DNA of 49,871 bases from Promethearchaeota archaeon (GTDB lineage: Archaea; Asgardarchaeota; Thorarchaeia; Thorarchaeales; Thorarchaeaceae): the NCBI GenBank assembly GCA_014728035.1, contig WJMJ01000080.1, positions 1-49,871 on the forward strand. Direction: 5' to 3'. A program made the translations under genes and the position numbers. Below are positions 27,935 to 36,199 of this stretch, piece by piece. Positions within the stretch are counted from its first letter, which is position 1, and each line of letters starts with the position of its first letter. A model generated the notes under the pieces. The model was not told where the DNA came from. It did no database searches and was given only the letters and a program-made list of their open reading frames with translations.

Positions 27935-28441
27935 ATGGGAATGACACAAAAAGCTCACACTCCATCATCTAGTTTCGCAAAAGAGGTAGCAGAAGCTCCT
28001 GGTGGCGAGGCCATCAACAAGTGCGTCCAATGCGGAATCTGCACTGCTAGCTGTGCTGTTGCATCTGTCTCTGACAAGTACAGACCGCGAAAACTGATTC
28101 AGAAAATTCTGATCGGAAAACGCGAGGAGGTACTTAAGAGTGAAGTGCCATGGCTCTGCATGACCTGTAGAATGTGCGAAGAAAGATGTCAAGAGGGCGT
28201 TAGCCCAGCTGAAATTTTCCAAGCTGTCAGACATATTGCGGCAAAAGAAGGACACATACCTGATGCTTTCAGAAACACCGTTGATACACTCCTCGATGAT
28301 GGCTGGTTGCTTAAGGATGCCTATTCCGACTTCATTGAAGATGACCGAGATGACCTCGGACTAGACATGGAGCTTGGATGGAATAATGACTTTATGAAAA
28401 AAGTCAAAGCGAAGTATTTTGAGGGAGAAACAGAAGCATGA
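27935..28441 (+). CDS. hdrC: Heterodisulfide reductase subunit C
   Basis: CVQCGICTASC and WLCMTCRMCEERC 2x[4Fe-4S] motifs; first gene of operon; AGGTGA SD. Confidence 0.9.
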   Translation: MGMTQKAHTPSSSFAKEVAEAPGGEAINKCVQCGICTASCAVASVSDKYRPRKLIQKILIGKREEVLKSEVPWLCMTCRMCEERCQEGVSPAEIFQAVRHIAAKEGHIPDAFRNTVDTLLDDGWLLKDAYSDFIEDDRDDLGLDMELGWNNDFMKKVKAKYFEGETEA

Positions 28442-29316
28442 AGGAATATCTCCTATATACTGGTTGTACAACTCCAGTTAGATTACCTAATTATGAAGCC
28501 TCAGTTAAAGCTACATTAGAGAAACTGGGGATTAAGATTTGTGATTTCAAAGATGTAACATGTTGCGGAGCTCAATTTGTGGAGTCTCTTAACAAACGTG
28601 CCTTTGCAGCAATGAGTGGCAGAATATTAGCTCTTGCTGAAAAACAAGGAAAAGACATTCTAGCAATCTGTGGTGCCTGTAATGGTTCTCTAAAACATAT
28701 CAAGCATGAACTTGATCACGATAAAGAACTACGTGATGAGATAAATGAGTTACTGAAAGATGAAGGTCTCGAATATACCGGAAATGTTCAGGTCCGTCAT
28801 CTTCTGCAAGTTCTTCGCGATGATATTGGATATGAGAAAATCAAAGAAGCCACTGTTAAGCCACTCAGTGGTGTTAGATTATCAGCTCATTACGGTTGCC
28901 ATGTAACTAGACCACATGAGATTATGCAAGTTGACGATCCAGAAAATCCACGCTCTATCGATGATATAATCGAAGCAATTGGAGGAATAGCTGTTGACTA
29001 TGCTGGAAAAACTCGTTGTTGTGGAGGTCCCATGCTTGCTATGGATGAAGAATTAGCGGGCAAGATTGGAATGGAAAAGATTCTCAATGTCAAAGCAGCT
29101 TCTTCTGAAGGTATTGTCACTGCATGCGTATTCTGTGACATACAACTCACTCAAGTTCAGTTTGGAGGTAATATGTCATCTGAAGATAGATTACCAATCA
29201 TAACTGTACCACAATTACTTGGTTATGTATTAGGAATTGAAGAAGAATTACTTGGTTTCGACTTGAACAAGATTAGTCCAAGCCAGATTCTCGAAAAAGC
29301 TCAGGAGGTCAAATAA
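28438..29316 (+). CDS. hdrB: Heterodisulfide reductase subunit B
   Basis: Two CCG domains: YTGC, TCCGA, ICGAC; HYGCH, RCCGG, ACVFC. Confidence 0.92.
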   Translation: MKEYLLYTGCTTPVRLPNYEASVKATLEKLGIKICDFKDVTCCGAQFVESLNKRAFAAMSGRILALAEKQGKDILAICGACNGSLKHIKHELDHDKELRDEINELLKDEGLEYTGNVQVRHLLQVLRDDIGYEKIKEATVKPLSGVRLSAHYGCHVTRPHEIMQVDDPENPRSIDDIIEAIGGIAVDYAGKTRCCGGPMLAMDEELAGKIGMEKILNVKAASSEGIVTACVFCDIQLTQVQFGGNMSSEDRLPIITVPQLLGYVLGIEEELLGFDLNKISPSQILEKAQEVK

Positions 29317-30650
29317 TGACTGTTGATACAAGTTCGTCTTCTGACTCGAAACACAAACCAACTGCTAGTGCTCTTGTTATCGGTGGCGGAGTCGCTGGGA
29401 TGCAAGCAGCTCTTGATATTGCTGCACAAGGCTACAAAGTATACCTTGTGGAAAAGACCTCCTCGATTGGTGGTAGAATGGCTGCGATCGACAAGACTTT
29501 TCCAACTCTTGATTGTTCAGCGTGTATCCTTACTCCCAAACTTAGTGAAGTATCTCGCCATCCGAATATTGAGATTCTTACATATTCTGAGGTGAAGGGT
29601 GTAACAGGAAAAACTGGTGACTTTAAAGTAAAAGTCTACCGAAAAGCACGATACGTTCATGAAGACCGATGTTCTGGATGCGGAGATTGTGCAGCTGAGT
29701 GCCCTGTTGAAGTGCCAAATTATTTTGATGAATACATTGGTTTCAGAAAAGCAATCTACATGCCCTTCCCCCAGGCTACACCAGCAGTATATACTATTGA
29801 TATGGAAACCTGTATTGAATGCAAACGATGTGCAAAAGTTTGTGAGCGAGATGCTATTGACTATGAAATGCAAGACTCAGAGGTTGAACTCAATGTCGGT
29901 GCAATTGTCGTTGCTACCGGGTACAAATTATTTGATGTTTCGGAATATCCCCGTCTCGGTTACACTAAATATGATAATGTCATCAATGCAATGGAATATG
30001 AACGTCTCATCAATGCAGCGGGACCAACCCATGGTCATCTAATCAGACTGAGTGACGGAAAGATGCCCAAGAATATTGGTTTTGTCCAATGCGTTGGTGC
30101 TCGTGATGTTAACAAGGGTGTTCCATATTGTTCTCGAGTTTGCTGCATGTACGGAATTAAGAATGCTGTGATGGCAAAAGAACACGACCCGGATATTGAT
30201 GTATCAATATACTATGCTGATATCCGAGCATTTGGTAAAGGTTTTGAAGAATTCTATAATATGGCAAAGACTCGTTTCGAAGTGAATTTTGTTCGTGGAA
30301 GAGTAGCCGAGGTTGTTGAAGATCCGAAAACACGAGACCTAATCGTTCGTGTTGAAGATACTGAGACTGGAGAATTCAAAGAAGTTCGTCATGACTTACT
30401 GATTCTTTCACCTGGAATTCAACCTCCAGAAGGAATGAGTGAGATGGCCGAAAATATTGGGATTGATGTTAACGAAGACGGTTATATCTCCGTTGAGCAT
30501 GCCCTTACTGCTCCCGTTGACACAAAGATTCCTGGAATCTATGTATGCGGCTGTGCTGACGGCCCCAAAGATATTCCAGATAGTGTTGCAGCTGGAAGTG
30601 CAGCAGCAATGCGAGCGACAATCGTCCTATCAAAGGAGGGTAAAGAATAA
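29316..30650 (+). CDS. hdrA: HdrA-like flavoprotein 1 (FAD domain plus inserted ferredoxin; no N-terminal Fe-S domain or C-terminal ferredoxin)
   Basis: GGGVAG, TFPTLDCSACIL, CSGCGDCAAECP, CIECKRCAKVC, CVGARD...CSRVCCMYGIK, GPKDIP. Confidence 0.9.
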   Translation: MTVDTSSSSDSKHKPTASALVIGGGVAGMQAALDIAAQGYKVYLVEKTSSIGGRMAAIDKTFPTLDCSACILTPKLSEVSRHPNIEILTYSEVKGVTGKTGDFKVKVYRKARYVHEDRCSGCGDCAAECPVEVPNYFDEYIGFRKAIYMPFPQATPAVYTIDMETCIECKRCAKVCERDAIDYEMQDSEVELNVGAIVVATGYKLFDVSEYPRLGYTKYDNVINAMEYERLINAAGPTHGHLIRLSDGKMPKNIGFVQCVGARDVNKGVPYCSRVCCMYGIKNAVMAKEHDPDIDVSIYYADIRAFGKGFEEFYNMAKTRFEVNFVRGRVAEVVEDPKTRDLIVRVEDTETGEFKEVRHDLLILSPGIQPPEGMSEMAENIGIDVNEDGYISVEHALTAPVDTKIPGIYVCGCADGPKDIPDSVAAGSAAAMRATIVLSKEGKE

Positions 30651-32377
30651 TGACTGAAACAGAGACCCCTAGAATTGGAGTTTTTGTCTGCCATTGCGGT
30701 CACAATATTGCTGGAGTCGTAGATGTCAAGAAAGTGGCTGAAATTGCGTCAAACTTACCAAATGTTGTATTTTCAACTGATGAGATGTTTATGTGTGCAG
30801 ATGCTGGACAGCAACTGATTCGTGATAAGATAAAAGAACATAATCTTACACGTGTTGTCGTTGCTAGTTGCTCTCCACGAATGCACGAGCCTACCTTCAG
30901 AAAAGTTGTTGAAGAGGCTGGTATGAACCGTTATCTGTTTGAACAAGTGAATCTCCGTGAACATGTTTCATGGTGTCATATGCGTGAACCTGAGGCAGCT
31001 ACTGAGAAAGCAATTGATTTGGTGAGAATGTCTGTAGCTCGTGCAGGAAAACTTGAGGAGTTGCCTATAAAGGCCGTAAAAGTCACTCCAAGGACTCTTG
31101 TTGTTGGAGGTGGAGTAGCAGGACTTCGTTCAGCACTTGATATAGCCGATAGAGGCTTTGAAGTTGTTCTTGTTGAAAAGAAGCCCAAATTAGGTGGCAA
31201 TACAATCAAGTGGTCACATTTGTATCCAACAGGTGAAGACGGTGAAGCAATCGTAGGACCTCTTGTTGAAAAGGTACAGAAACACAAGAATATCACAGTT
31301 CATACTGATTCAAAAGTTTCAGAGTTTGATGGCTACATTGGTAACTTCGATGTAACTGTCAAAACAGGTGAAGACTTGACTAAATACGAGATTGGTACTG
31401 TTATTGTTGCAACGGGATTTGACCCATTTGAACCTGCGGGCTACTATGGCTATGGAGTCAGTAACAAGATAATGACCCTCGCACAATATGAGGAGAAAAA
31501 AGTTGCTGGCAAAATTGATTTTGACAAGATCAAGAAGATTGCATTCATTGGATGTGTTGGTTCTCGAGAACCTGGAAAGAAAGGTCATGAGCATTGTTCC
31601 AGGTATTGTTGTACAGCCGTAGCTAGCGCATCAGCAGATGCGAAAGATAAGGTGGATGACATAGTTGTTCTATATCAGGACATTCGAACTTATGGAAAGA
31701 ACCATGAAGAGCTTCATAGGCTTGCCCGTGAGAAATTTGTCATCTATAGTAAATTCCCAGAAGACAAGAAACCAGAAATTGAGGTAAAAGAAGGCAGGAT
31801 TCATATCAACTGGCATGATACTTTGTCCGATGAAGAGCTCTCTTTCGAACCTGATTTACTTATCTTAGCTTCAGCAATGATTCCACCAGATGGAATTGAC
31901 GAGATTTCTAAGATGTTCAGTCTGACTAGAAGTGCAGATGGATTCTTCAACCCTGAACATGTCAAACTCGCTCCACTGACAACACACACTGCTGGAGTAA
32001 TGATAGCTGGGGCAGCTCATTCTGCAAAGACTGCAGCTGAATCGATTATCGATGCTAGTGGAGCAGCTGCTAAAGCAGTTGGTCTAATGGCTCAGGGTGA
32101 GGTTGAGATTGAATCTACAGTTTCCTATGTCCTCCCTGACCTCTGTTCTGCATGTCACACTTGTGTCACAGCTTGTCCATATGGGGCATTAGAAGTGATT
32201 ACAGAGAATGACAAAGAATATGCTATTGTCACTGAAGCAAAATGTCACGGATGTGGAACCTGCGCAGCCGCTTGTCCAAGTGGAGCAATCGTTATGCGGC
32301 ATTCTACTGATGAACAAATTATTACAATGGTTGAGGCTTACCTCTGTCCTGCGCCTGAAACTGGAGGTGGTGCTTAA
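30650..32377 (+). CDS. hdrA: HdrA-like flavoprotein 2 (N-terminal Fe-S domain, FAD domain, C-terminal ferredoxin; no inserted ferredoxin)
   Basis: RIGVFVCHCGHNIAG, CSPRMHE, GGGVAG, CVGSRE...CSRYCC, CSACHTCVTACP, CHGCGTCAAACP. Confidence 0.9.
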   Translation: MTETETPRIGVFVCHCGHNIAGVVDVKKVAEIASNLPNVVFSTDEMFMCADAGQQLIRDKIKEHNLTRVVVASCSPRMHEPTFRKVVEEAGMNRYLFEQVNLREHVSWCHMREPEAATEKAIDLVRMSVARAGKLEELPIKAVKVTPRTLVVGGGVAGLRSALDIADRGFEVVLVEKKPKLGGNTIKWSHLYPTGEDGEAIVGPLVEKVQKHKNITVHTDSKVSEFDGYIGNFDVTVKTGEDLTKYEIGTVIVATGFDPFEPAGYYGYGVSNKIMTLAQYEEKKVAGKIDFDKIKKIAFIGCVGSREPGKKGHEHCSRYCCTAVASASADAKDKVDDIVVLYQDIRTYGKNHEELHRLAREKFVIYSKFPEDKKPEIEVKEGRIHINWHDTLSDEELSFEPDLLILASAMIPPDGIDEISKMFSLTRSADGFFNPEHVKLAPLTTHTAGVMIAGAAHSAKTAAESIIDASGAAAKAVGLMAQGEVEIESTVSYVLPDLCSACHTCVTACPYGALEVITENDKEYAIVTEAKCHGCGTCAAACPSGAIVMRHSTDEQIITMVEAYLCPAPETGGGA

Positions 32378-32823
32378 TGACTACTAAAGCAGTTACTACA
32401 AAGACTACCGAAGAAGACTGGGAACCACGTATCGTTGCATATTGTTGCAACTGGTGCTCTTACGCTGGAGCTGACCTTGCTGGCACTAGCAGAATACAAT
32501 ACCCTCCTAATGCTAGAATTATTCGAGTGAACTGTACTGGACGAATTAGCCCAGAGTTCATTCTAGCAGCATTGGATATGGGTGCTGATGGCGTGTTAGT
32601 ATCTGGTTGCCATCCTGGTGATTGTCACTACACTAGCGGAAATCTAAAACTAAGAGCTCGCTGGGCACTTATGGAGAAAGCTATCGAGCAGGCTGGTATA
32701 GATCCCCGGCGTGTCCGATTACAATGGGCAAGCGCATCAGAAGCACAAATCTTTGCGGATGGAGTAAAGATACTCATAGACCAAGTGAAGAAGTTGGGAC
32801 CTATTAGGAGGTCATGGAAATGA
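32377..32823 (+). CDS. mvhD: F420-non-reducing hydrogenase [2Fe-2S] subunit D (all-Cys form)
   Basis: CCNWCSYAGADLAG, RVNCTGR, GCHPGDCHY. Confidence 0.95.
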   Translation: MTTKAVTTKTTEEDWEPRIVAYCCNWCSYAGADLAGTSRIQYPPNARIIRVNCTGRISPEFILAALDMGADGVLVSGCHPGDCHYTSGNLKLRARWALMEKAIEQAGIDPRRVRLQWASASEAQIFADGVKILIDQVKKLGPIRRSWK

Positions 32824-33053
32824 GTGTATTCTCTGAATATTTCAAACAAAAACGTGGAGCAATTCGAAAACAGCGAAAAGCGATTAAAGAAGTACTTGAG
32901 AGTGGACCTGCTTCAGTGAGTGATATTTCTGAAAAGGTCGAGTTTGATAAGAAACTCATTCTTTGGAATCTCATGGGAATGCTACGTTGGGGAGATGTGG
33001 ATATAGTAGATGAGCGTGACCATGAATTGGTCTATGCTCTTGCGGAGGCCTAA
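32814..33053 (+). CDS. Small winged-helix protein embedded in the hydrogenase operon
   Basis: IKEVLESGPASVSDISEKV...LMGMLRWGDV...Y wHTH pattern; overlaps the mvhD stop. Confidence 0.7.
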   Translation: MEMSVFSEYFKQKRGAIRKQRKAIKEVLESGPASVSDISEKVEFDKKLILWNLMGMLRWGDVDIVDERDHELVYALAEA

Positions 33054-33055
33054 AC

Positions 33056-33979
33056 ATGTCTGATAAAGTTTCAATCGCATTAGTACAAGGAAGCTCCTGT
33101 TGGGGTTGCTTCCAGAGCCTTGTGGATATTCATCTCCGATTAGCAGACGTATTGCCCCTACTTGACATCAAGTTCTGGGCTGGAGTCGTAGATTTCAAAC
33201 ACTCTGATCTTGAAGGATATCCAGAGAAATCTATTGATGTTGGAATCTTTGAAGGTTCAGCCAGGACTTCTGACGATGTGCATCATCTCAAAGTTCTACG
33301 TGAAAAATGCAAGACCCTAATTGCATTCGGTTCTTGTTCCTGCTTTGGTGGGATTCCAGGCTTAGCAAACTTCTCAGAGATTGATGATGCCTTAGCTACC
33401 AAGTTCAAAACGAGACCAACTTATGACAATGAAACGATCCCCTCAGAGAATCTTCCCACAATCGAACCTGTTATTCTCCCTAATAACGAGATTGTAGATT
33501 TCGATATTTTCCTTCCGGGATGCCCTCCAACATCCGACCTGATTCATACTGCTCTTACAGCTTTAATCAAGGGCGAAGAATTAGAACTTCCTCCTCATAC
33601 TGTGTGTCATTACTGCAGTCGTGAGAAGAAGGAAACACCTCTTCCCGATGTACTGAAACCCTATCAAGGCAAGGCTGATCCTGACCGATGCTTACTTGAG
33701 CAAGGTTACATCTGTCTTGGTGGTTCTACATGGGGTCTCTGTGAAGGGCAATGTGTTAACAAGGGAGCTACCTGTCGAGGTTGTTTTGGTCCTGTTCCAC
33801 CAATTATGCAGGATCAGGGTGCTACTGCTATCTCTATGATTGGTACATATGCACCTCTAGAACCAGAACTCCTCAAAGAGAAAATTAAGGACCCACTTGG
33901 GCTATTTTGGAGATTCTCATATGCCACAAGTCATCTTGGACACATCCGTGCTAAGAGAGAGGAGGTTAAGAACGAATGA
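33056..33979 (+). CDS. mvhG: F420-non-reducing (group 3c) hydrogenase small subunit
   Basis: SCWGC, FEGS, FGSCSCFGGIPGL, PGCPP, VCHYC, CLLEQGYICLG, CRGCFG. Confidence 0.92.
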   Translation: MSDKVSIALVQGSSCWGCFQSLVDIHLRLADVLPLLDIKFWAGVVDFKHSDLEGYPEKSIDVGIFEGSARTSDDVHHLKVLREKCKTLIAFGSCSCFGGIPGLANFSEIDDALATKFKTRPTYDNETIPSENLPTIEPVILPNNEIVDFDIFLPGCPPTSDLIHTALTALIKGEELELPPHTVCHYCSREKKETPLPDVLKPYQGKADPDRCLLEQGYICLGGSTWGLCEGQCVNKGATCRGCFGPVPPIMQDQGATAISMIGTYAPLEPELLKEKIKDPLGLFWRFSYATSHLGHIRAKREEVKNE

Positions 33980-35292
33980 CTGACGAAAAGACAATCAGAA
34001 TAGACCCGGTGACTCGGTTAGAAGGTCACGGATCATTAACAATCAAATTAGGCAAAGATGGTAAGGTTCGCGATGTGCAATTCAATGTAGGCAGCACTCG
34101 CTTCTTTGAAGAGTTCCTTCAAGGTCGCCCGATGGAAGAAGCACCACGTATCGCCCCACGAATCTGTGGGATATGTCCAATTCCTCACCATCTAGCATCG
34201 GTAAAAGCTGTAGAAGCTGCATGGGATGTTACCCCTCCGCCTGCAGCCATCAAATTGCGAAGATTGATGATTGAGGCAAAACAGCTGTCCTCACATGCGA
34301 TACATTTCTATGCACTAGCAGCTCCTGATTTCGTCTTTGGACCTTTTGCAGATCCTGCAGTGAGAAACGTTGCCAAAGTTCTAGAACATCTACCCGATGT
34401 AACTGTACAAGCTATCAAGCTCATGCAGTTCGGGCAAGAATTGTGTAAGACCATTGGTGCTAAAGCAATTCATCCAACAACCGCTATTCCTGGTGGAATG
34501 TTAACTGCTCTAACAGAGGAGGAACGTGACTACTGGATTGGGCAAGTACCTGAGATGCTTGAAAATATAACGAAGACTGTTGACTTGGCAAAGAAGGTTG
34601 TCACTGATTATATTGATGTAGTGACAAAAGTGGCAGTTACTCCTACTTATTACCTTGGTTTGGTTAATGACGGAGCACTCGATATCTACGATGGAAAAGT
34701 CAGAGTCATGGACCCAGAAGGTAAGATTGTTGCTGACTTTGAACCCAAAGACTACCAGCAATATTACGGAGAGCATGTTGCAGACCACTCTTTTGCTACT
34801 CATGTCTATTACAAACCAGCAGGTTATCCTGATGGAGTTTGGAGAGCTAATACATTGGCAAGATGCAATGTTGCTGATAAAATGGCTACACCACTCGCTC
34901 AAGAAGCCCTTGTAGAGATGCGCGAACTCATCGGTCGCCCCTCACATCATACCTTTGCATTCCATTATGCGCGGATTGTTGAGATGGTTCAGGCGGCTGA
35001 ATGGATTAAGACATTGCTTGAAGACCCAATGATTGTAAGCACTGACGTTAAACTTGCAGATGTGGAACCAAAAGCTGGAGATGGAGTTGGACTCGTAGAA
35101 GCTCCTCGCGGTACTCTATTGCACCATTACACAAGTGACGAGGAAGGTATCTTGACAGATGCAAACCTTATTGTAGCTACAAATAACAATATAGCTGGAA
35201 TTGAAAAGTCCCTAATGGTTGCAGCAAAACAGATATTCGAGGAAAAGGCTCACGAATCACTTAACCTTCCTGATCCTCTTGTAAAACTATAA
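33976..35292 (+). CDS. vhuA: Group 3c hydrogenase large subunit lacking the C-terminal L2 motif (VhuA type)
   Basis: PVTRLEGHG, L1 motif RICGICPIPH, EAPRGTLLHHY, LIVATNNN; ends ...PDPLVKL with no DPCxxC. Confidence 0.92.
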   Translation: MTDEKTIRIDPVTRLEGHGSLTIKLGKDGKVRDVQFNVGSTRFFEEFLQGRPMEEAPRIAPRICGICPIPHHLASVKAVEAAWDVTPPPAAIKLRRLMIEAKQLSSHAIHFYALAAPDFVFGPFADPAVRNVAKVLEHLPDVTVQAIKLMQFGQELCKTIGAKAIHPTTAIPGGMLTALTEEERDYWIGQVPEMLENITKTVDLAKKVVTDYIDVVTKVAVTPTYYLGLVNDGALDIYDGKVRVMDPEGKIVADFEPKDYQQYYGEHVADHSFATHVYYKPAGYPDGVWRANTLARCNVADKMATPLAQEALVEMRELIGRPSHHTFAFHYARIVEMVQAAEWIKTLLEDPMIVSTDVKLADVEPKAGDGVGLVEAPRGTLLHHYTSDEEGILTDANLIVATNNNIAGIEKSLMVAAKQIFEEKAHESLNLPDPLVKL

Positions 35293-35307
35293 TTACGGTG
35301 AACCCTA

Positions 35308-35460
35308 ATGACTGAAGAAATACCTGAAGGCCTGCTCAACCTCCTCGAGATGGTTGTGCGGTGCTACGATTGCTGACTATCATGCGGTGCTCATCTCGTC
35401 GTAGTTGACGAAGAGGATCGCGAGATTGTCAGGAAGGAGTTAGTGACCAGCGGCGGATGA
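35308..35460 (+). CDS. vhuU: Selenoprotein VhuU, 50 aa with Sec23: MTEEIPEGLLNLLEMVVRCYDC(U)LSCGAHLVVVDEEDREIVRKELVTSGG
   Basis: Translated by hand; not in the ORF track. GGTGA SD at 35297-35301, ATG 35308. In-frame TGA at 35374-35376 falls at the first ligand position of the L2 motif (D-x-U-x-x-C-x-x-H), which vhuA lacks. SECIS downstream. Confidence 0.93.
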
Positions 35461-35507
35461 AGGCACGACCGAAAGTTTGTGGTCGTGTTGGACAACCCTG
35501 CCCGGGT
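35446..35507 (+). ncRNA. Eukaryote-like (Lokiarchaeota-type) SECIS element
   Basis: ATGA core 35457-35460; A; stem GGCACGACC (35462-70); loop GAAAGTTTGT; stem GGTCGTGTT (35481-89); GGAC (tandem G.A/A.G). Lower helix GGCGG (35452-56) pairs with CTGCC (35498-502). Confidence 0.85.
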
Positions 35508-35542
35508 GTGCTTGTCACACTCCTCCCCCCTTTTTCTTTTTC
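35504..35542 (+). terminator. Operon terminator (hairpin plus U-tract)
   Basis: GGGTGTG-CTTGT-CACACTC followed by CCCCCC TTTTTCTTTTT. Confidence 0.6.
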
Positions 35543-35623
35543 AATTCTGTTAATTCGGTCTGTCATTCCTTCAACAGACTCTTATCGGAAGAATTGTCCA
35601 TAATAATTACACTTCTACATGAC

Positions 35624-36199
35624 ATGATAAATATGGATTTAGAAACTAGAGACGAAATCTGCTCTTTGATGAACTCCGAATTAAGCCAACTGATGGAACC
35701 ACACCAAATTCATTTCTATTTTGATAACAGAATTCAGCAGTTCGTCTTGTCAATTGAACCTCGACCAGGAATCATTAGGAAGAAGGAGATAGAGCCTAAT
35801 ACCATCGAATTATTGGACGCAGAAGAATTACTCACGCTATTGGTTTCTTATATTGTAAATTTGAGTCAGCCTAGAAGGGATTTTTCACGAGTAGCTATAA
35901 TATCCATAGCTGGAATGATTGGTTGTGCTATTATTGTTATTTTTCTAGTGTCTTTCATCGGATTTCCAATTTTAGATTCAATATTTCTTTTGTCAGTTCT
36001 TCTAGGAATAGGGATACCTATTGTCTTAGTTTTGGTTTTGATTTTACCAAGAATTCTCTTTCCACATCCTGACTTAATTACTTACGAATTGAGACCTAAT
36101 CTATTGGAAGTACTTGAGAAAATAAAGAGCCATTGTGGTTCATCAGAGGAGAATATTCTCCTCCAAGAACGGATAGAACGTCTCAGAGAAAAGAATTGA
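35624..36199 (+). CDS. Hypothetical protein with two TM helices
   Basis: Same frame as track ORF 35477-36199; start moved to ATG 35624/35633 because the upstream part overlaps the SECIS and terminator. Confidence 0.6.
   Translation: MINMDLETRDEICSLMNSELSQLMEPHQIHFYFDNRIQQFVLSIEPRPGIIRKKEIEPNTIELLDAEELLTLLVSYIVNLSQPRRDFSRVAIISIAGMIGCAIIVIFLVSFIGFPILDSIFLLSVLLGIGIPIVLVLVLILPRILFPHPDLITYELRPNLLEVLEKIKSHCGSSEENILLQERIERLREKN

Follow-up and report, generated by a model that had tools for sequence, protein, structure and literature searches.

We analyzed a 49,871-nucleotide stretch of a Thorarchaeia genome (the window), which contains a co-directional and tightly packed operon with the gene order hdrCB-hdrA-hdrA-mvhD-orf79-vhuG-vhuA-vhuU. 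The operon and all other window features described here lie on the plus strand. The first gene codes for an HdrC-like 4Fe-4S dicluster protein (27935-28441; Pfam Fer4_8/Fer4_17) and is followed by a gene for an HdrB-like protein with CCG domains (28438-29316; Pfam PF02754 in two stretches). Two HdrA-like flavoproteins, both Cys forms, are encoded in tandem by genes that overlap by ATGA (29316-32377). The upstream one (29316-30650) lacks the N-terminal domain and matches positions 135-562 of the NCBIfam HdrA2 profile (E 3e-179, below the cut-off). A search for an upstream in-frame (Sec) continuation of this short ORF found none. The second (30650-32377) matches NCBIfam HdrA2/HdrA and contains Pfam FAD and Fer4 domains. 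The MvhD/VhuD subunit (32377-32823; Pfam PF02662, E 9e-51) is likewise a Cys form, and its gene has no in-frame TGA. Because the HdrA-like proteins and MvhD are Cys forms, vhuU is the only selenoprotein gene that we identified in the operon. A conserved ORF of 79 amino acids (32814-33053) lies between mvhD and vhuG. It matched no Pfam or NCBIfam family, and tblastn found copies with 38-63% identity at 19 Thor-type loci, in the same operon position. The small subunit VhuG/MvhG (33056-33979; PF01058) scored 228 bits against NCBIfam VhuG, below the cut-off. One relative (locus L010, G009:C28, about 1501-2619 on the minus strand) carries a second vhuU copy directly after mvhD and the 79-amino-acid ORF, with a gap of about 290 nt and no vhuG or vhuA in between.

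The large subunit gene, vhuA (33976-35292), codes for a protein of 438 amino acids that ends before L2. The protein contains the L1 motif RICGICPIPHH (at about 34159-34191) and an APRG motif, terminates in ...LPDPLVKL, and has no D-x-C-x-x-C-x-x-H anywhere. L2 is supplied by vhuU, the last gene of the operon (35308-35460). It starts 15 nt past the end of vhuA and runs from an ATG at 35308 to a TGA stop at 35458-35460, a length of 50 codons plus the stop. Codon 23 is an in-frame TGA (35374-35376). Alignments to solved large subunits place this conserved TGA, read as Sec23, at the first L2 Cys, which is a terminal Ni ligand. The L2 motif of the peptide is R18-C-Y-D-C-U-L-S-C-G-A-H29, with U-x-x-C-x-x-H spacing, and is followed by an extension of 21 residues. 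The codon for Cys22, TGC (35371-35373), stands where D-P-C/U motifs have a near-invariant Pro. The best family match of the peptide is NCBIfam VhuU NF041786 (52 bits, E 4.5e-14), at which the equivalog cut-off of 70 bits is not reached; that model was presumably built on Methanococcales sequences. VhuA also falls below its NCBIfam equivalog cut-off (496 bits). Since VhuU, VhuA, VhuG, and VhuD all score below the curated equivalog cut-offs, we regard them as related to the Methanococcales enzyme but not as its equivalogs. An earlier note on this DNA had proposed that a split group 3c [NiFeSe] hydrogenase is completed here by a hidden selenoprotein gene, vhuU. The large subunit without L2 and the unannotated 50-codon gene with its in-frame UGA are both located as that note had described, and the conserved TGA and the Sec machinery that it had listed for checking were found as well.

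The TGA at codon 23 could in principle be a true stop or an error, which would leave a 22-codon remnant ORF and a defective hydrogenase. Standard gene callers would end the ORF there, and a Pfam search of the 51-amino-acid vhuU translation matched no family. Comparison with other genomes speaks against this reading. A single TGA is present at the same codon in each of about 30 vhuU orthologues of relatives. In these orthologues, the amino-acid sequence remains conserved past the UGA up to the C-terminus, with synonymous variation in this part; the end of conservation at the UGA that the earlier note had named as a refuting sign is absent. The same TGA was found in more than 200 genomes and is therefore not a sequencing error, which disposes of the misread TGC or TGT that the earlier note had raised as a possible refutation. 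A SECIS element follows the gene, and the Sec machinery of the genome is complete. The true-stop reading is already contradicted by these observations, and we give it virtually no credence.

The genome encodes the components that the earlier note had named for checking: tRNA-Sec, SelB, PSTK, SepSecS, and SelD. The tRNA-Sec (55.9 bits, anticodon TCA) is on contig C151; ARAGORN found no tRNA in the window, the tRNA-Sec being on another contig. The genes for SelB, SepSecS, tRNA-Sec, and a PSTK-like kinase are clustered within about 4.3 kb (G000:C151:70659-74949). The PSTK match is below the TIGR03574 cut-off (129.5 bits), but the gene adjoins the one for tRNA-Sec. The SelD of this genome is itself a Sec-containing protein, with one in-frame TGA in its gene.

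A SECIS element of the Loki type (eukaryote-like, type I) is located at 35457-35493, and its AUGA (35457-35460) overlaps the vhuU stop codon. Its stem of 9 bp, formed by 35462-35470 and 35481-35489, encloses a 10-nt loop, GAAAGUUUGU, and GA follows at 35491-35492. The element has the features of lokiSECIS and Asgard eSECIS-like type I elements, namely an AUGA...GA core, a stem of about 9 bp, an A-rich apical loop of 10-11 nt, and a position near the stop codon. The AUGA, the AAA of the loop, and the GAC are invariant in 19 relatives, in which the stem is 95% paired and both sides have changed in 6/7 pairs. The covariation score of the stem was 0.562 compared with 0.309 in shuffles (0/500 as high), and slid partners scored at most 0.20. 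Rfam gave no family at the gathering score in the whole window, and a search of 35200-35700 at E≤10 returned only spurious sRNA and snoRNA matches. This silence at vhuU indicates that the Rfam models miss the Asgard SECIS. The lokiSECIS was described in Lokiarchaeota, where the AUGA of the VhuU.1 element doubles as the stop codon (Mariotti 2016, PMC4989117). A second small hairpin is conserved at 35495-35507; in relatives it is 96% paired, with one covarying pair. It has the form CCC...GGG, and the loop in relatives is mostly of the GCAA type. Past it comes a C/T-rich and oligo-T tract (35520-35541). The second hairpin and the oligo-T tract (35495-35541) probably form the transcript end.

In Thor-type lineages only, the vhuU coding sequence contains another hairpin (35377-35428; 19 pairs) that begins at the codon after the UGA. 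The fold of the whole region has a z-score of -4.9 in this window. The hairpin is 95% paired in 15 Thor relatives, and three pairs have changed on both sides. For example, a Gly27-to-Ala change is matched by a synonymous change on the opposite strand of the hairpin. Median folding z-scores were -2.8 in the Thor group and -0.5 in the Loki group, the latter corresponding to no significant coding structure. Support for the hairpin is moderate because 10 of its pairs are invariant and because the alignment used to assess it is also the one from which the structure was obtained. The hairpin resembles a eukaryotic Sec redefinition element and may act as an SRE-like helper of recoding.

We compared the predicted VhuA-VhuU pair with solved hydrogenases. 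The nearest solved relatives of VhuA are 9sfi_g (VhuA of Methanococcus maripaludis, E 3e-130) and 5odc_F (MvhA of Methanothermococcus thermolithotrophicus, E 6e-113). Residues 6-29 of VhuU match the 27-residue VhuU chain of M. maripaludis (9SFI chain M). VhuA and vhuU share a reading frame, and we built a read-through model, based on 73 aligned relatives, in which the TAA and the TGA were taken as residues. Its mean pLDDT is 91.8, and its pTM is 0.92. It superposes on MvhA (5odc_F) with a Z-score of 53.6 and an rmsd of 1.6 Å over 445 residues at 42% identity. The alignment stops at model residue 473 (His29 of VhuU), where the mature solved chain also ends; the modeling that the earlier note had suggested thus reproduces the MvhA fold exactly up to His29. 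Confidence is low in the linker (pLDDT about 60) and drops from 63 to 31 along the extension, and no solved chain aligns past His29. A low-confidence tail after His29 fits a cleaved extension. The 21-residue extension to which the earlier note had drawn attention is present, and the genome contains a HycI-type endopeptidase gene. By analogy to the Methanococcus Vhu enzyme, we infer that a HycI-type endopeptidase would remove these 21 residues. The nearest solved relatives of VhuA, its L1 motif, the MvhD and MvhG partners, and the HdrABC neighborhood place the predicted enzyme in group 3c (Mvh/Vhu type), the Hdr-linked [NiFe] hydrogenases.

The locus belongs to a family that has been described previously. 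VhuU, VhuD, HdrA, SPS, and PrxL selenoproteins were published for Lokiarchaeota in 2016 together with the lokiSECIS (Mariotti, PMC4989117), as the earlier note had stated for VhuU. In a later survey (Huang 2024, PMC11227280), 68% of the Asgard archaea that use Sec, among them Thorarchaeia, had the FrhA/MvhA/VhuU family. The Asgard VhuU of these reports (PMC4989117, PMC11227280) is likewise an ORF of about 50 amino acids with one Sec, located downstream of vhuA. Its SECIS shares the AUGA core that doubles as the UGA stop, the 9-bp stem, the A-rich apical loop, and the GA. We found no difference of substance between these genes and the one in the window. The gene, the split, the Sec residue, and the eukaryote-like SECIS have thus been described for Asgard archaea since 2016, and this vhuU is a member of the family. 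The F420-non-reducing [NiFeSe] hydrogenase of M. maripaludis (VhuA/VhuU; PDB 9SFI/9T1S), for which 9SFI is the entry of the complex (PMC13518236), also has a split large subunit with Sec at the first L2 position, UxxCxxH spacing, and an association with Hdr and MvhD. It differs in having R-A-Y-D-P-U in place of R-C-Y-D-C-U. In addition, the SECIS in the window is of the eukaryote-like Asgard type, and the MvhD and HdrA proteins encoded there are Cys forms. MvhA of M. thermolithotrophicus (5ODC) has the same fold, and its mature chain ends at the His that matches His29 of VhuU, but it is an unsplit single polypeptide with D-P-C and no selenium.

The earlier note had singled out the Cys at position 22 as unusual. 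We scanned 400 Asgard genomes with the pattern R-x-[YF]-D-x-U-x-x-C-x-x-H and obtained matches in 210/400; a reversed-pattern control of this phylum-wide scan gave almost no matches. Among the 143 VhuU-like matches listed, 139 have D-C-U. The exceptions are two D-P-U sequences from one Promethearchaeaceae genus, one D-N-U, and one D-F-U at a contig end, and the D-P-U and D-N-U genes still carry a SECIS. A D-C-U scan of 185,579 species genomes gave at least 120 loci, and 119 of the 120 listed encode VhuU. These loci represent Thor-, Promethearchaeota/Loki-, Hel-, Hod-, Hermod-, Jord-, and Atabeyarchaeia lineages and include the cultured archaeon P. syntrophicum MK-D1 (L152). Among the D-C-U matches listed, the VhuU peptide from the window is closest to Thorarchaeota sequences. 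The triplet is thus the clade-wide norm of predicted Asgard VhuU proteins and no peculiarity of this genome. The extra upstream Cys, Cys19, fared similarly. It is present as the earlier note had said, but it is typical of Thor and Loki sequences only, not special to this genome, with N, S, A, I, or G in its place in other lineages.

Some of the D-C-U contigs carry bacterial labels (L051, L073, and L109, labeled Deferrimicrobium, Nanopelagicaceae, and Anaerolineae, respectively). The Deferrimicrobium- and Nanopelagicaceae-labeled loci encode a typical Asgard VhuU, and one of them maps to a genome placed in the Asgard phylum, so these bins look mislabeled. From the Anaerolineae-labeled contig no VhuU peptide was obtained, and its match to the pattern may be due to chance. 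Other loci encode Cys-type split VhuU paralogues (L165:1804-1965, the same place as L176, and L171) with the motif R-C/A-Y-D-C-C-L-S-C-S-A-F. These paralogues have Cys in place of Sec and Phe in place of the C-terminal His of L2, and they retain the vicinal Cys. The change from His to Phe raises the question of whether processing or metal binding is normal.

The replacement of Pro by Cys nevertheless stands when Asgard VhuU is set against other hydrogenases. The alignments of solved large subunits that were displayed have D-P-C in every case. Of the 150 nearest large-subunit cluster representatives, 89 have a recognizable L2; D-P-C occurs in 87 of these 89, D-L-C in two, and D-C-C in none. VhuU of M. 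maripaludis (9SFI chain M), the sole Methanococcales/Methanopyrus sequence compared for D-P-U, reads RAYDP-Sec-YSCAAH. The Pro in nearly all of the nearest representatives and in the solved chains marks the Cys as a real departure, as the earlier note had maintained. In the passages of Mariotti 2016, Huang 2024, a 2026 review, and the Atabeyarchaeia paper that matched our search terms, the motif is given as UxxC and the Cys beside Sec goes unmentioned. A literature search on a Cys beside Sec or on the L2 proline returned nothing relevant.

We weighed several explanations for the conservation of Cys22. The TGY codon before the UGA might be retained for the RNA rather than for the protein, if its codon context or base pairing favors Sec insertion. 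The minimum free energy fold of this sequence places the third base of the Cys codon and the UGA opposite GUCAG (about 35428-35433). In RNAalifold predictions for the Thor sequences, UGCUG can pair with the Gly codons that immediately precede the AUGA, and a G pairs with both TGT and TGC. However, the Cys22 codon has no consistent RNA pairing partner; its partners vary within and between lineages, and their mean pairing probability is 0.5-0.7. Sequences of the Loki group (61-62 distinct sequences) keep D-C-U without a significant hairpin, the selD gene of the same genome has a Gly codon (GGN) before its Sec UGA, and D-P-U and D-N-U genes retain their SECIS. D-C-C is also kept where the UGA is absent, as seen in all five of the Sec-to-Cys revertants, which are independent and come from different families (one is a fused full-length subunit). 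An RNA-level reason for the Cys codon was rejected on the basis of the inconsistent partners, the hairpin-less Loki D-C-U genes, and the Gly of SelD, and we consider it highly improbable. The same observations, the D-C-C of the revertants, and the Pro in 87 of the 89 nearest representatives indicate that Cys22 is selected at the protein level.

A redox function, which the earlier note had raised, would be one protein-level explanation. Cys22 could be the partner of Sec23, and oxidation would then produce a reversible selenenylsulfide that protects the Ni-Se site or switches the enzyme off. The two residues are adjacent, and the Cys is about 97% conserved in Asgard VhuU, compared with a near-universal Pro elsewhere. 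A vicinal Cys-Sec selenenylsulfide is established chemistry in TrxR, and the Gly-Cys-Sec-Gly of mammalian TrxR has Cys directly adjacent to Sec, as in this VhuU. The TrxR pair cycles as a selenenylsulfide on a flexible, solvent-exposed tail, whereas Sec23 of VhuU would be a buried metal ligand. A Cys-Sec shuttle has been discussed for HdrA of the M. maripaludis complex (PMC13518236). Against a Cys22-Sec23 couple, the five revertants keep the Cys after losing Sec, and Asgard Sec forms exist with Pro (two genomes), Asn, or Phe in its place. VhuA shows no strictly co-conserved change. Besides those of L1, no VhuA Cys that could partner Cys22 or Cys19 is strictly conserved (Cys157 78%, Cys297 38%). 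VhuA positions A274, F329, E410, and F421 were examined as weak, small-sample candidates for covariation with D-C-U versus D-P-U, D-N-U, or D-P-C. The F329 position is Tyr in 94% of D-C-U forms, and E410 is also Glu in M. maripaludis, which makes these candidates uninformative. The comparative data appear neutral to mildly against an obligatory Cys-Sec couple, and we view the selenenylsulfide as unlikely. It is equally doubtful that the Asgard-wide change from Pro to Cys provides the [NiFeSe] site with a vicinal thiol that bonds reversibly to the terminal Ni ligand, as Se-S or, in the revertants, as S-S. To our knowledge, no protective or regulatory Se-S switch of this kind exists in any hydrogenase.

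Because D-C-C outlives the loss of Sec and Sec forms with D-P-U and D-N-U exist, the Cys is not strictly tied to selenium. At the same time, its conservation across the phylum exceeds what would be expected of a mere space-filling residue, which argues for a specific role. Our best guess is that Cys22 is most likely a second-shell, structural, or maturation-related variant rather than an obligatory redox partner. We rank this explanation above a selenenylsulfide switch, and the latter above RNA context.

We are highly confident in the following model as the best explanation of the locus as a whole, in which vhuU is the last gene of a Thorarchaeia hdr-mvhD-vhu operon for a group 3c [NiFeSe] hydrogenase. 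The large subunit would be split between VhuA, which holds the L1 cysteines, and the 50-codon vhuU, which holds L2. The machinery encoded in the genome (tRNA-Sec, SelB, PSTK, SepSecS, and SelD) would insert selenocysteine at UGA23, directed by the eukaryote-like lokiSECIS, in which the AUGA core and the UGA stop overlap. In Thor-type lineages, the coding hairpin right after the Sec codon probably aids decoding. Homology and the structural model suggest that the VhuU peptide docks on VhuA as a C-terminal strand, with Sec23 and Cys26 predicted to ligate Ni and Ni-Fe. The 21 residues after His29 would be cut off by the HycI-type endopeptidase, as suggested by Methanococcus Vhu. The Cys in place of the usual Pro is, in this model, a protein-level, clade-wide signature of Asgard VhuU.

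Gene finders miss vhuU because one of its codons is a UGA read as selenocysteine, and without its annotation the hydrogenase of this Thorarchaeia genome would be called truncated. The only point that we did not find in the literature searched is that Asgard VhuU nearly always has a Cys beside the Ni-binding Sec, at a position occupied by Pro in other [NiFe] and [NiFeSe] hydrogenases. The role of this Cys is testable, since a cultured Asgard archaeon carries the same D-C-U motif. If Cys22 has a chemical role, it would be of interest for O2 protection, proton relay, and Ni insertion in hydrogenases.
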